From NCBI RefSeq assembly GCF_057098645.1, contig NZ_CM169472.1: DNA of 64,000 nt; one strand, 5' to 3'. Position numbers: made by a program. This document shows positions 12,001-18,000 of this stretch, piece after piece; the first letter of the stretch is position 1; each line of letters starts with the position of its first letter.

Positions 12001-15000
12001 CACGGCATCCGTCTGGGCTTTATGTCCTTCTACGTGAAAGCGGTGGTTGAAGCCCTGAAACGTTACCCGGAAGTGAATGCTTCTATCGACGGCGATGACG
12101 TGGTTTACCACAACTATTTCGACGTCAGCATGGCGGTTTCTACGCCGCGCGGCCTGGTGACGCCGGTTCTGCGTGATGTCGATACCCTCGGCATGGCAGA
12201 CATCGAGAAGAAAATCAAAGAGCTGGCAGTCAAAGGCCGTGATGGCAAGCTGACGGTTGAAGATCTGACCGGTGGTAACTTCACCATCACCAACGGTGGT
12301 GTGTTCGGTTCCCTGATGTCTACGCCGATCATCAACCCGCCGCAGAGCGCAATTCTGGGTATGCACGCTATCAAAGATCGTCCGATGGCGGTGAATGGTC
12401 AGGTTGAGATCCTGCCGATGATGTACCTGGCGCTGTCCTACGATCACCGTCTGATCGATGGTCGCGAATCCGTGGGCTTCCTGGTAACAATCAAAGAGTT
12501 GCTGGAAGATCCGACGCGTCTGCTGCTGGACGTGTAGTAGTTTAAGTTTCACCTGCACTGTAGACCGACGTGGATAGGGTGTCGGTCTACGGTTTAAAAG
12601 ATAACGATTACTGAAGGATGGACAGAACACATGAACTTACATGAATATCAGGCAAAACAACTGTTTGCCCGCTATGGCTTACCAGCACCGGTGGGTTATG
12701 CCTGTACTACTCCGCGCGAAGCAGAAGAAGCCGCTTCAAAAATCGGTGCCGGTCCGTGGGTAGTGAAATGTCAGGTTCACGCTGGTGGCCGCGGTAAAGC
12801 GGGCGGTGTGAAAGTTGTAAACAGCAAAGAAGACATCCGTGCTTTTGCAGAAAACTGGCTGGGCAAGCGTCTGGTAACGTATCAAACAGATGCCAATGGC
12901 CAACCGGTTAACCAGATTCTGGTTGAAGCGGCGACCGATATCGCTAAAGAGCTGTATCTCGGTGCCGTTGTAGACCGTAGTTCACGTCGCGTGGTCTTTA
13001 TGGCCTCCACCGAAGGCGGCGTGGAAATCGAAAAAGTGGCGGAAGAAACTCCGCACCTGATCCATAAAGTTGCGCTTGATCCGTTGACTGGCCCGATGCC
13101 GTATCAGGGACGCGAGCTGGCGTTCAAACTGGGTCTGGAAGGTAAACTGGTTCAGCAGTTCACCAAAATCTTCATGGGCCTGGCGACCATTTTCCTGGAG
13201 CGCGACCTGGCGCTGATCGAAATCAACCCGCTGGTCATCACCAAACAGGGCGATCTGATTTGCCTCGACGGCAAACTGGGCGCTGATGGCAACGCCCTGT
13301 TCCGCCAGCCTGATCTGCGCGAAATGCGTGACCAATCGCAGGAAGATCCGCGTGAAGCACAGGCTGCACAGTGGGAACTGAACTACGTTGCGCTGGACGG
13401 TAACATCGGTTGTATGGTTAACGGCGCAGGTCTGGCGATGGGTACGATGGACATCGTTAAACTGCACGGCGGCGAACCGGCTAACTTCCTGGACGTTGGC
13501 GGCGGCGCAACCAAAGAACGTGTAACCGAAGCGTTCAAAATCATTCTCTCTGACGACAAAGTGAAAGCCGTTCTGGTTAACATCTTCGGCGGTATCGTTC
13601 GTTGCGACCTGATCGCTGACGGTATCATCGGCGCGGTAGCGGAAGTGGGTGTTAACGTACCGGTCGTGGTACGTCTGGAAGGTAACAACGCCGAACTCGG
13701 CGCGAAGAAACTGGCTGACAGCGGCCTGAATATTATTGCAGCAAAAGGTCTGACGGATGCAGCTCAGCAAGTTGTTGCCGCAGTGGAGGGGAAATAATGT
13801 CCATTTTAATTGATAAAAACACCAAGGTTATCTGCCAGGGCTTTACTGGTAGCCAGGGGACTTTCCACTCAGAACAGGCTATTGCATACGGCACTAAAAT
13901 GGTTGGCGGCGTAACCCCAGGTAAAGGCGGCACCACCCACCTCGGCCTGCCGGTGTTCAACACCGTGCGTGAAGCTGTTGCTGCTACTGGCGCTACCGCT
14001 TCTGTTATCTACGTACCAGCACCGTTCTGCAAAGACTCCATTCTGGAAGCCATCGATGCAGGCATCAAACTGATTATCACCATCACTGAAGGCATCCCGA
14101 CGCTGGATATGTTGACCGTGAAAGTGAAACTGGACGAAGCAGGCGTTCGTATGATCGGCCCGAACTGCCCAGGCGTTATCACCCCGGGTGAATGCAAAAT
14201 CGGTATCCAGCCGGGTCACATTCACAAACCGGGTAAAGTGGGTATCGTTTCCCGTTCCGGTACACTGACCTATGAAGCGGTTAAACAGACCACGGATTAC
14301 GGTTTCGGTCAGTCGACCTGTGTCGGTATCGGCGGTGACCCGATCCCTGGCTCTAACTTTATCGACATTCTCGAAATGTTCGAAAAAGATCCGCAGACCG
14401 AAGCGATCGTGATGATCGGTGAGATCGGCGGTAGCGCTGAAGAAGAAGCAGCTGCGTACATCAAAGAGCACGTTACCAAGCCAGTTGTGGGTTACATCGC
14501 TGGTGTGACTGCGCCGAAAGGCAAACGTATGGGCCACGCGGGTGCCATCATTGCCGGTGGGAAAGGGACTGCGGATGAGAAATTCGCTGCTCTGGAAGCC
14601 GCAGGCGTGAAAACCGTTCGCAGCCTGGCGGATATCGGTGAAGCACTGAAAACTGTTCTGAAATAAATATCTGTAATAAGAAATAGCCCTCGCCGCTTCC
14701 CTCTACAGGAATGGCGAAGGGCTGTCGGTTTCGACATGGTTGGCCATCGTATGATGGCCTTTTTTATGCCTTAAACGGTTAACCACGGTCGAAATCTGAC
14801 TGCAGGCTTGACTGCATGACCACAGCCACTGTGGATTGCCGCAACCGACCGCAAGCCACGAATAAGAACGACGGCGAATTTCGAATCGTTACCTGATGCA
14901 CTGGCTTCCCAGCGTTTGACCGTAGCGTTAAGTAAATCAACAAAAGCGATGTTCACCGCTTTTCGTCAAGTCGTGCCATTTGTCAGCCAGGATCGGGTCT

Positions 15001-18000
15001 TTACCCCGGATATTGCAGCATCGCAAAAATTCTTAGAGGGATATGCTATAAATCAAAAATAAAATCTTTGTTGATTGTTTATCATAATATCCACAGATAT
15101 GATAAATGATATCAATTTAATAATTTTCACTTAATGTGATTCCGGATAATTCGAAAGGCGCTGTGCTTTTCGGATTATTATTATCTGATTAAGATACTTG
15201 TCACGCCAGGCTTACTGGTTTATAAATGTCAATCATGATTCTTATAAATTATTTATTGCTGCTTTGGTTACCATTACTTCGTAATAAGTAATGTATTTTT
15301 GATGGTTTAAACTATTTTTAAGGGACGGCATTATGCGAGGGAAAATACCTAAAACGGAACTGCTGGTGACTTTTGAGGTCGTCGCACGTCATGAAAGTTA
15401 TACCAGAGCGGCAGAGGAGTTAGCGTTAACCCAAAGTGCAGTATTCAGACAAGTAAGTGCGCTGGAGGAATTTTTACGTACTCCGTTATTTTCACACTCT
15501 AAAAAACGTATTTTTCTTAATGATGCAGGTAAGTATTACCTGGGGATAGTAAAAGAAACATTAAATAAGCTAGAACGCGACACCAATACCATTATGACCT
15601 GGCAGCCTACGGTTCAGGTTATTGAACTTGCCGTTAATCCTACTTTTAGTACCCACTGGTTAATCCCAAATTTACATGAATTCACAAAGTTACATCCCGA
15701 TATTATTGTTAATATTCATTCTTTAGCTAATAACGGCGATTTTCTTAATCGGGAGTACGATGCTGTCATTATGCGCGAAAATTTTTGCGCGCCCTGGGCG
15801 GAAGTAGAATATCTCTTTGATGAGGAGATTTTGCCGGTATGCAGCGGCAGTTTGCTTGCAATGTCCGATCAAAAACTGTCAGTGGCAGAACTGCTTACTG
15901 AGTTACCGCTTCTGCATCAAAGCACCCGTATTACTGGCTGGGAAGAGTGGTTTGCTTTATCTGGCGTTAGCAGTCCGCTGGTCAATAACGGACCACGTTT
16001 CGATTTGCTTTCAATGCTGATTGCCGCCGTGCGCTCTAATCTCGGCGTGGCGCTGTTACCACGTTTCGCTATTCAACATGATTTGGATAGTGGCGATATG
16101 GTGATTCCCTGTGATGTGCCTATTCGTACCGGTAATCGTTTTATTATGACGTGGCAGGAAGAGAAGTCTGACTCACCGCACTTGCAGCAATTTCGTGAAT
16201 GGTTGCTGGCGAAATCGGTCGTACCGCAGGAGATGTAAAACCTGCGCCTGGCGGGATGCCAGGCGCAGTTATTACCAGTCGATACCCGGCTGGGCCTGAA
16301 TGCCGTTATCAAAAGCATGTTTGACGGGGCGGATTTCGCTTACCGTATCCGCCATTTTTAATATCTGACTGTGGCAACCGCGTCCGGTGACAATGACACT
16401 TTGTTGTGCCGGGCGGTTTTGCAGAGAAGCGATCACTTCTTCGGTATCCAAATAATGGTAAGCCAGCATATAGGTCAGCTCATCAAGCACCACTAAGTCG
16501 TAACGCTTGTCAGCCAGCATCCGTTTGCTTTCCGACCAGACCTCTTTCGCCGCGTCGATATCCGCTTGCCGGTTCTGTGTCTCCCAGGTAAAACCGGTTC
16601 CCATAATATGAAACTCAACCCCCAGCGGCTGGAGAAGGTTATATTCGCCGTTGTCCCATTGCCCCTTGATGTACTGCGCAACCCCCACCGTTTTGCCATG
16701 ACCCACCGCGCGCGTCACAGTACCAAACGCGGCAGTGGATTTCCCTTTGCCGTTGCCGGTGAAAACAATCAAGATCCCTTTTTTCTCTATCGCCGCCGCG
16801 ACGCGCGTATCGACCTGTTCCTTCAATTTCTGTTGGCGCTGCACATGCCGTTCAGTTGAAATTCGCGCTTCCATTCATTTTCCTTAATGTCCCGCAGGGC
16901 AACTGGCGCAGCGGTGTTGCTGCTCAAACTGACTAAAGAAATTATTGCCTTTATCATCTACCAGGATGAATGCGGGCAGATTTTCCACTTCCATCATCCA
17001 CACCGCTTCCATACCCAGCTCCGGGTATTCCAGGCAACGCAGACTTTTGACATATTCTTGCGCCAGTAACGCAGCTGCACCGCCAATACTTCCCAGATTG
17101 AAGCCGCCATGTTTGTGACAGGCATCGGTGACCTGCTGGCTGCGGTTACCTTTCGATAACATCACCAGACTGCCGCCAGCCGCCTGGAAGGTATCGATAT
17201 AACCGTCCATTCGACCGCCCGTGGTTGGACCCAGTGAACCGCAGGCCATGTTCTCCGGTGTTTTCGCCGGGCCAGCGTAATAGACAATATGATGCTTCAG
17301 GTACTCCGGCATCGATTCGCCGCTATCCAGCCGCGCTTTTATTTTGGCGTGGGCGATATCGCGCGCCACTACGATGGGACCACTTAACGACACGCGGGTA
17401 CCTACCGGTAATCTGGCGAGATCCAGCATCACGTCACGCAACGGACGGTTTAGATCCAGTTGTACATGTTGCGCGTGATTTTCTTCCCGCAATGAGGCTG
17501 GAATATATTGCCCCGGATTGTGTTCGAGTTTTTCCAGCCAGATACCGTGTTTGTTAATTTTTGCTTTGATATTGCGATCGGCAGAACAGGAGAGCGCCAT
17601 AGCTATCGGGCAAGAGCCACCGTGACGCGGCAGACGAATGACGCGAATATCATGAGCGAAATATTTCCCCCCAAATTGTGCACCAATACCAAATTGCTGA
17701 CTGGCCTCGAGCAACGCTTTTTCCAGCTCAATATCACGGAATGCTTGTCCCTGCTCGTTTCCGCTGGTGGGCAAATTGTCGTAATATTTCGTTGAGGCCA
17801 GCTTGGCAACTTTTAAGGTTTGATCGGCTGAAAGCCCTCCGACGACAAAGGCGATGTGGTAAGGCGGGCAGGCAGCGGTGCCCAGCGATTTCATTTTTTC
17901 GATTAAAAATGCGGTCAGTTTTTCTGGTTGCAATAAGGATTTGGTTTCCTGATAAAGCGCGGCTTTATTGGCGGAGCCGCCCCCTTTATTAACACAGAGA

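Follow-up and report, generated by a model that had tools for sequence, protein, structure and literature searches.

The 64,000-nucleotide stretch of DNA analysed here (the window; contig NZ_CM169472.1 of NCBI RefSeq assembly GCF_057098645.1) belongs to the chromosome of Escherichia coli and is 100% identical to O145:H28-type strains. Between sucD and cydA it carries a 13.7-kb island with the genes of the methylaspartate pathway, arranged as glmS-glmL-glmE-mal-atuA-DUF4387-gltP-fumD-cobO, and, facing the 3' end of this operon, a gene for a LysR-type transcriptional regulator (LTTR), which is our subject. Table 1 gives the gene layout, which combines the RefSeq annotation of a strain with the same sequence and the results of Pfam and NCBIfam scans. 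A preliminary description of the window had picked out a low-GC LysR gene at positions 14950-16270 and had set two readings side by side, a pathway regulator acting on the operon from a distance and an unrelated cargo gene of separate origin. Comparison across genera favours the former: the gene is likely to encode a dedicated regulator of the enterobacterial methylaspartate cluster, which would activate the cluster via a TTGA-N7-TCAA box upstream of glmS.

The regulator and its neighbours across species

The LysR gene is where the preliminary description had placed it, and its product has both domains of the LTTR family as well as the typical length of about 300 amino acids. An HTH_1 domain (PF00126) spans residues 9-67 (E 1e-17, 64.3 bits against a Pfam cut-off of 26.6) and a LysR_substrate domain (PF03466), the C-terminal effector-binding domain of the periplasmic-binding-protein type, spans residues 96-293 (E 4e-28). 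The best NCBIfam match is GcvA (NF008352), which covers the full length with 221.5 bits (E 1e-65); because this score falls under the 288-bit family cut-off, the protein is GcvA-like and not GcvA proper. The closest solved structure is likewise that of GcvA (8y6u, E 9e-43). The gene is intact in the window, and its product differs by two amino acids from its equivalent in O157:H7 Sakai, ECs_0755. Shortened alleles of 189 (a cluster of 180 member sequences), 241 and 279 amino acids occur in E. coli and Shigella (P0072, P0002, P0003 and P0038), and their existence suggests that the regulator itself is decaying in some lineages. Literature searches by locus tag and by topic found no functional study of the regulator.

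We collected and aligned homologues of the regulator, setting the orthologue boundary at about 55% identity, and fetched 56 species-representative loci and individual contigs, which were mapped by tblastn. In about 55 species, the orthologues (55-100% identity) nearly always have fumD and/or the glm and mal genes no more than 10 kb away, in six arrangements. The regulator is convergent at the 3' end of the operon, as in the window, in Escherichia, Salmonella, Citrobacter, Klebsiella, Enterobacter, Lelliottia and Buttiauxella (arrangement A, with variants that are without cobO and/or gltP). In Yersinia (B) it is divergent from a unit that opens with sumT and a GHMP kinase gene and continues through glmS to gltP, and stands directly upstream of fumD-cobO; in Yokenella (C) it is divergent from a btu-like-glmSLE-mal operon; and in Morganella (D) it lies upstream of a convergent cobO-fumD-gltP unit. 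Budvicia, B14 and Hs463 share the order cobT, regulator, fumD-cobO (E). Finally, at locus L071 (F) the regulator is divergent, across 279 bp, from a complete nine-gene operon in the E. coli gene order. Three of the six arrangements (Yersinia, Yokenella and L071) thus have the classical divergent layout, and the regulator stands beside the cluster in nearly every orthologous locus with enough flank. Convergent placement is an allowed exception to the usual divergent layout of LTTR genes (PMC11495319), and on the present comparison of loci it is best read as a derived rearrangement of an ancestral divergent layout.

Two genera place the gene next to cobalamin biosynthesis: in Budvicia (L062, 8874-13649) and Trabulsiella (L044, 8847-10915) only a few bases separate the start of the regulator gene from cobT, with which the cobalamin biosynthesis operon ends, and in Budvicia an enolase-superfamily gene follows cobO. 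More distant homologues, at 44-46% identity, were set aside: the contexts in Leeia and at L072 are unrelated, and the one in Pseudogulbenkiania is near class I and class II fumarases.

The regulator also shares its history with the cluster. Its distance matrix correlates with those of FumD (r = 0.972), GlmE (0.970), Mal (0.978), AtuA (0.973) and CobO (0.956), against a correlation of only 0.245 with the flanking housekeeping gene sucD, and of 5426 complete E. coli genomes, 1127 carry the LTTR gene and 1131 carry glmE. As the preliminary description had noted, its composition departs from that of the operon core: the gene has 44.4% GC (39% over its 5' half and 50% over its 3' half), compared with 51.2% in the operon body (16272-26313) and 50.4% in the whole window. 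In most genera, however, the regulator lies about 3-11 GC points under the enzyme genes, following the GC content of the host; Morganella and the P. vulneris group alone show almost no difference. Among the operon genes, DUF4387 has even less GC than the regulator (39%). The recurring deficit and the still lower DUF4387 indicate that low GC is a property of the gene and not a mark of foreign origin, and, given this recurrence and the distances above, the idea of a separate origin is not supported.

A conserved box in front of glmS and fumD

The preliminary description had placed the 5' region of the operon at 26314-26860, about 10 kb from the regulator, and it is indeed there. The DNA upstream of glmS was aligned for Escherichia, E. 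whittamii, Salmonella, Klebsiella, Citrobacter and Pseudescherichia. These regions are otherwise poorly alignable, and a single long block, T(T/C)TGAAAATAGATCAATTGC, is invariant in the leaders of six genera. At its core is a TTGA-N7-TCAA dyad, read from 26445 to 26431 on the minus strand, which contains TGAAAATAGATCA, a T-N11-A, and abuts a -35-like hexamer; it is a candidate for the kind of T-N11-A box that the preliminary description had advised looking for. Dyads of the T-N11-A type beside the -35 region, and co-location with the target, are hallmarks of the family (PMC11495319). The proposed promoter that the box adjoins would lie about 90-130 bp upstream of glmS, whose ATG is at 26313, and the spacing of its hexamers is kept in Salmonella, Klebsiella, Citrobacter, P. 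vulneris and Yersinia. The box itself takes the form CTGACAATAAATCAATTGT in the glmS leader of Yersinia and TTCAAATTTTATCAATTGC in that of Yokenella. A second conserved element, AATCATTT, lies 33 bp upstream of the box (about 26468-26461).

The same box stands in front of fumD wherever fumD-cobO forms a separate unit (Yersinia, Budvicia, Morganella, L045 and L056), for example as TTGCAGAGAGAACAATTGC in Yersinia, TTGCAGATAGATCATTTGC in Budvicia and TTGCGGATAGATCAATTGC at L045. The two sets of sites predict each other. A weight matrix built only from five fumD sites, all from other genera, ranks 26426-26447 on the minus strand first in the entire 64-kb window (18.3 against 11.5 bits), and with a matrix built from glmS sites only, the fumD sites in turn come out on top at the Budvicia, L045 and L056 loci. 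With the combined matrix, the top site at L071, a locus not used in training, falls in the divergent intergenic region (18.0 against 8.9 bits), and the box is also the top match in the untrained Salmonella, Klebsiella and Citrobacter loci. Dinucleotide-shuffled sequences reached the score of the box in 0 of 1000 cases for the E. coli leader, 3 of 1000 for L071 and 14 of 1000 for Budvicia. In Yokenella, a btu/fec-like TonB-ABC uptake unit is preceded by a lower-scoring copy of the box (14.7 bits).

The helix-turn-helix segment of the regulator, LTQSAVFRQ, does not vary across clades A, B, D and E, in keeping with a conserved DNA target. A comparison of recognition helix and box for co-variation gave nothing informative, the helix being near-invariant with only Yokenella differing (LTQGALFRQ). 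Elsewhere in the window, the matrix has five identical chance matches (AGTTGACTTTTAATCAATTGGT) at 38235-38982. These fall in the apparent anticodon arms of an array of tRNA-Lys genes and are unrelated to the regulator; in Sakai, lysT/W/Y/Z are annotated at the matching position, downstream of ybgF.

The island, its borders and the state of its genes

To the left of the island, sdhCDAB-sucABCD ends on the plus strand at 14666. The 3' untranslated region (UTR) of sucD that follows forms stable hairpins (-42.1 kcal/mol, z -4.6) and closes with a strong terminator, and we take it to be the place of the 3'-UTR-derived small RNA SdhX. An Rfam scan of 13000-30000 at E <= 1 gave no match at the sucD 3' end, and neither a cobalamin riboswitch nor any other RNA family in the glmS leader. 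With 14667-15340 as query, 5425 of 5426 genomes match only over query positions 1-107, which correspond to the sucD 3' UTR. The left junction of the island is thus at about 14774, just past the sucD terminator, where K-12-type genomes diverge and carry mngR; the right junction is at about 28473-28738, upstream of cydA. The operon is followed on its right by a 547-bp AT-rich region, then by two low-GC hypothetical genes and then by cydAB. The two hypothetical genes (26861-28308; 140 and 314 amino acids, 37.5% GC) have no match in Pfam, NCBIfam or PADLOC. Salmonella, Klebsiella and Citrobacter are without them, cydA being directly divergent from glmS there, and they seem to have been added to the island in Escherichia only. 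More broadly, the sucD-cydA interval (14774-28738 in the window) holds the cluster in Escherichia, Salmonella, Klebsiella, Citrobacter and Pseudescherichia (the window and L003, L068, L069, L070 and L041), and holds mngR-mngAB instead in K-12-type E. coli; the locus is either ancestral, with repeated loss, or a recombination hot spot.

Between this left junction and the regulator, the very AT-rich stretch of about 330 bp that the preliminary description had reported corresponds to 15000-15332, but the island-specific DNA is longer, reaching back to 14774. The AT-rich part presumably holds the promoter of the regulator itself. Homology to this upstream DNA is confined to Escherichia. It contains a perfect inverted repeat. 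In E. whittamii, whose upstream region as a whole has only 87% identity, the left arm of the repeat is kept, as are eight of the nine right-arm bases; the repeat is unrelated to the box in front of glmS and fumD. Two further motifs were suggestive of autoregulatory copies, ATCAAT-containing blocks at about -112 (Salmonella and Citrobacter) and a TTGAAAAATTATTAA block at about -230 of the regulator. Both are absent from Escherichia and were not used. The left edge of the island, its 52% GC part, has a minus-strand ORF of 61 amino acids (14771-14956) and a terminator-like hairpin on the same strand (AAAAGCGGTG...CGCTTTT, 14942-14963), which together may be the remnant of an earlier gene.

The convergent 3' ends of the regulator and cobO are separated by a GC-rich hairpin, described earlier as bidirectional. 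It does fold on both strands (plus strand, -27.4 kcal/mol, z -4.3; minus strand, -29.4 kcal/mol, z -5.5), and none of 200 shuffles folds equally well; the T-rich tail (GTTTTAC), however, is found on the minus strand only, which makes the hairpin better suited to end transcription of the operon than that of the regulator. It is likely to be the terminator of the operon and possibly also terminates the regulator. Salmonella, Citrobacter, Klebsiella, Lelliottia and Buttiauxella have other hairpins at the same place, with sequences that by eye resemble repetitive extragenic palindromic elements, so the convergent terminator is conserved as a position and not as a sequence. In P. vulneris there is no hairpin between the LTTR gene and fumD, which nearly abut.

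Within the operon, FumD has a characterized counterpart, the Sakai protein (ECs0757), which is a mesaconase/fumarase (Kronen and Berg 2015, PMC4682846). The AtuA/DUF1446-DUF4387 pair is syntenic in all those arrangements in which mal and glm genes are present. The 160-nucleotide gap between DUF4387 and gltP contains a perfect 14-bp stem with a 4-nucleotide loop (19970-20001; GTAGATGCCTGAAT/ATTCAGGCATCTAC), followed on the minus strand by a moderately T-rich stretch, and this could be an internal attenuator or an RNA-stabilizing element of the operon.

Two of the nine genes are broken in this lineage. The island is 99.1% identical to that of O157:H7 Sakai, where the cluster is annotated as intact, mal and glmL included, and the alignment has three single-base gaps, of which two are the mal and glmL frameshifts. 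Alignment to the Salmonella and E. whittamii genes also reveals the mal frameshift. The exact mal deletion allele occurs in 25 complete genomes, O145:H28 strains foremost, compared with 335 for the exact intact Sakai allele. Because both genes are frameshifted, the conversion of glutamate to mesaconate is, to judge from the sequence, lost in this lineage, though the regulator is intact, and for the same reason O145:H28-type strains are the wrong model in which to study the pathway.

Table 1. Positions of the regulator, the methylaspartate operon and associated elements in the window
Feature	Positions	Strand	Basis or remark
3' UTR of sucD with terminator (14742-14759 and T-run)	14667-14773	+	Terminator scan; fold
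Island-specific DNA 5' of the regulator	14774-15332	+	Last 333 bp (15000-15332) 29.7% GC
Perfect 9-bp inverted repeat TTTATCATA-N11-TATGATAAA	15078-15106		226-254 bp upstream of the regulator ATG
LTTR, 301 amino acids, GcvA-like subfamily	15333-16238	+	Pfam, NCBIfam, structure match, Sakai comparison
GC-rich hairpin between convergent regulator and cobO	16242-16268		11-bp stem, 9 G-C pairs, 5-nucleotide loop
cobO, ATP:cob(I)alamin adenosyltransferase, last operon gene	16272-16874	-	Pfam CobA_CobO_BtuR, E 5e-64; RefSeq
fumD, class I fumarase acting as mesaconase	16884-18536	-	Pfam Fumerase and Fumerase_C
gltP-like dicarboxylate/amino acid:cation symporter	18644-19924	-	Pfam SDF, E 2e-102; RefSeq start codon
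DUF4387 gene	20085-20402	-	Pfam/NCBIfam scan
AtuA/DUF1446 gene	20399-21769	-	Pfam/NCBIfam scan
mal, methylaspartate ammonia-lyase, pseudogene	21773-23013	-	1-nucleotide deletion near 22784; split ORFs; RefSeq 'frameshifted'
glmE, glutamate (methylaspartate) mutase E subunit	23013-24458	-	Pfam Met_asp_mut_E, E 3e-214
glmL (mutL), mutase reactivating chaperone, pseudogene	24477-25864	-	1-nucleotide deletion near 25744; RefSeq 'frameshifted'
glmS, B12-binding mutase S subunit, first operon gene	25864-26313	-	NCBIfam NF002612, E 7e-76; RefSeq start codon
AT-rich region upstream of glmS, 32.4% GC, without Rfam family	26314-26860	-	GC count; Rfam
Inferred weak sigma-70 promoter: TTGCAA (26430-26425), 17-bp spacer, GACACT (26407-26402)	26402-26430	-	Read from sequence
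Candidate LTTR operator 5'-TTGAAAATAGATCAA-3', TTGA-N7-TCAA dyad	26431-26445	-	Leader alignments; weight matrix

Mechanism, alternatives and related systems

The linkage, the near-equal counts in E. coli genomes and the conserved T-N11-A-type box all lend support to the earlier idea of a pathway regulator acting at the glmS leader, and we envisage its action as follows. The regulator would act in trans, most likely by binding the TTGA-N7-TCAA dyad against the -35 element of a weak promoter, and with a small-molecule effector bound it would activate transcription of the operon from glmS to cobO. Where fumD-cobO is a separate transcription unit, as in some genera, the same box in front of fumD would serve that unit. 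Convergent placement behind the operon, as found in Escherichia, Salmonella, Citrobacter and Klebsiella, would be a rearranged form of the ancestral layout without mechanistic consequence. As effector we favour an intermediate of the pathway, mesaconate or threo-3-methylaspartate for instance, as the most plausible choice, because fumD is the most constant neighbour of the regulator and because glutamate failed to induce the cluster under anoxic conditions; citramalate, glutamate and corrinoids are further candidates. We would go further only tentatively and with considerable doubt, to the suggestion that regulator and box constitute a small dedicated regulon of glmSLE-mal, fumD-cobO and, in some genera, B12 uptake, induced by mesaconate or methylaspartate and not by glutamate. 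Mesaconate is the preferred substrate of FumD, and the core of the system that is best conserved is the pair of regulator and fumD; the switch could therefore answer C5-dicarboxylates of the gut or of inflamed tissue.

Several points weigh against this mechanism. Kronen and Berg (PMC4682846) found that the cluster was not inducible with glutamate under anoxic conditions in O157:H7 ATCC 700728, and because it stayed uninduced, glutamate alone is probably not the effector. The centre of the box is at about -43 from the inferred start site, compared with about -65 for the classical LTTR regulatory site, and the promoter hexamers at 26402-26430 are weak and were not called by a consensus promoter scan, so the geometry of the site is uncertain. 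The spacing of the dyad is one base off the FNR consensus, TTGA-N6-TCAA, and the pathway is anaerobic, which makes a global regulator conceivable. The autoregulation usual for the family finds no support upstream of the E. coli regulator (14774-15332), where the best score for the cluster box is 6.1 bits and 253 of 1000 shuffles score as high. The Trabulsiella orthologue has no cluster genes within the available flanks, and an IS21 element lies nearby. Finally, both binding by the regulator and its control of the cluster are predictions made on a comparative basis.

The likeness to an FNR site leads to the main alternative for the box, although we regard it as unlikely: the regulator would still control the cluster, but the box would serve another factor, perhaps a global regulator that responds to oxygen or nitrogen, or would simply be the core promoter, with the LTTR binding a less conserved site nearby. 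The box overlaps the -35-like hexamer, and its distance from the inferred start is that of a class II activator; its half-sites, TTGA and TCAA, are FNR-like, and the pathway enzymes are oxygen-sensitive (PMC4682846). The second conserved element of the leader could in that case be the true high-affinity LTTR site. On the other hand, all sites of clades A, B and E, whether in glmS leaders or ahead of fumD, have a spacing of N7 (Morganella has one base less), and a site for FNR would have N6, which is why we keep FNR only as a rival of low weight. In addition, in each scanned stretch of 13-64 kb the first-ranking matches to the box fall exclusively in regulatory regions of this cluster, and the LTTR is the only conserved cluster-linked DNA-binding protein.

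A different role for the regulator, centred on cobalamin handling (adenosylation, uptake or synthesis) and responding to a corrinoid or B12-related signal, seems improbable to us. The presence of cobO in the cluster would fit such a role, as would the place of the regulator gene immediately behind cobT, where the cob operon ends, in Budvicia and Trabulsiella, the sumT and GHMP kinase genes that begin the divergent unit of Yersinia and the box copy ahead of the Yokenella uptake unit. Yet the best-conserved boxes stand in front of glmS and fumD and not of cob genes, and the constant immediate neighbour is fumD and not cobO, the regulator being kept in arrangements without cobO (L010, L012, L013 and L041-L043). 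The lack of an Rfam match in the leader bears on riboswitch control only. Least credible of all, and in our judgement very improbable, is that an unrelated cargo gene of separate origin landed beside the operon. Its low GC (44% against an operon mean of 51%), its convergent orientation in the window and upstream DNA with homologues only in Escherichia are what such a gene might show. Against this, linkage to the cluster persists through six arrangements and about 55 species, the divergence of the regulator is congruent with that of the cluster genes (r about 0.97), the same GC deficit recurs whatever the host GC, with Morganella and the P. vulneris group as exceptions and DUF4387 lower still, and LTTR and glmE counts are near-equal in E. 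coli; the cargo reading of the preliminary description is accordingly set aside.

The cluster converts glutamate to mesaconate and citramalate. Roughly one in five complete E. coli genomes has it, O157:H7 and O145:H28 among them, and so do many Salmonella, Citrobacter, Klebsiella, Yersinia and Morganella. The sole biochemical study could not get it expressed (PMC4682846). A probable dedicated regulator with a precise 15-bp candidate operator offers a handle on its inducing conditions. If mesaconate or methylaspartate were the inducer, this would explain why glutamate never induced the cluster in O157:H7, and overexpression of the regulator, or the true inducer, would be expected to awaken a cryptic B12-dependent pathway in enteric pathogens. 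The regulator is an uncharacterized but conventional member of the LysR type, and its value is practical, not conceptual.

The gene itself was already known as a putative regulator of the cluster from Kronen and Berg (2015, PMC4682846), whose Fig. 5 shows the methylaspartate-pathway island of O157:H7 with this gene drawn as 'LTTR'. It is the same gene (ECs_0755 in Sakai) in the same sucD-cydA island, with the same neighbours (cobO/CobA, FumD, GltP, DUF1446, Mal and GlmSLE), and the membership given in that figure (glmS, glmL, glmE, mal, fumD with cobA/cobO, gltP, DUF1446 and the LTTR) is found here at 15333-26313. Their study differs in giving the gene a putative label only, names no operator, effector or test of it, and found no inducing condition; the window differs from the Sakai cluster in that mal and glmL are frameshifted here. 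The present analysis contributes the breadth of the linkage, specific candidates for operator and promoter, and the finding that target genes are pseudogenes in this lineage.

Among characterized regulators, GcvA, which with AmpR and DsdC makes up the GcvA-like LysR subgroup, resembles the protein in size and two-domain layout and is its best NCBIfam and structure match, but the regulator scores under the family cut-off and its genomic context is unrelated to gcvTHP. GcvA sites are of the CTAAT type, unlike the candidate box TTGA-N7-TCAA. The present system resembles those of BenM, CatM and CbbR, classical pathway-specific LysR activators with regulatory and activation sites by the -35 region, in its candidate T-N11-A dyad by a weak -35-like element, in the catabolic operon alongside and, at several orthologous loci, in the divergent layout; they differ in that the regulator in the window is convergent, 10 kb from its proposed target promoter and without a detected autoregulatory box. 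RipR of Salmonella is described as an itaconate-responsive LysR activator of a C5-dicarboxylate degradation cluster (bioRxiv 10.1101/648865). That cluster consists of a CoA-transferase, a hydratase and a lyase, compared with a B12-dependent mutase, an ammonia-lyase and a mesaconase here, and the likeness would be one of functional analogy only: in both, a LysR-type regulator would serve enteric pathogens in the use of a C5-dicarboxylate, which in the case of RipR is related to mesaconate.

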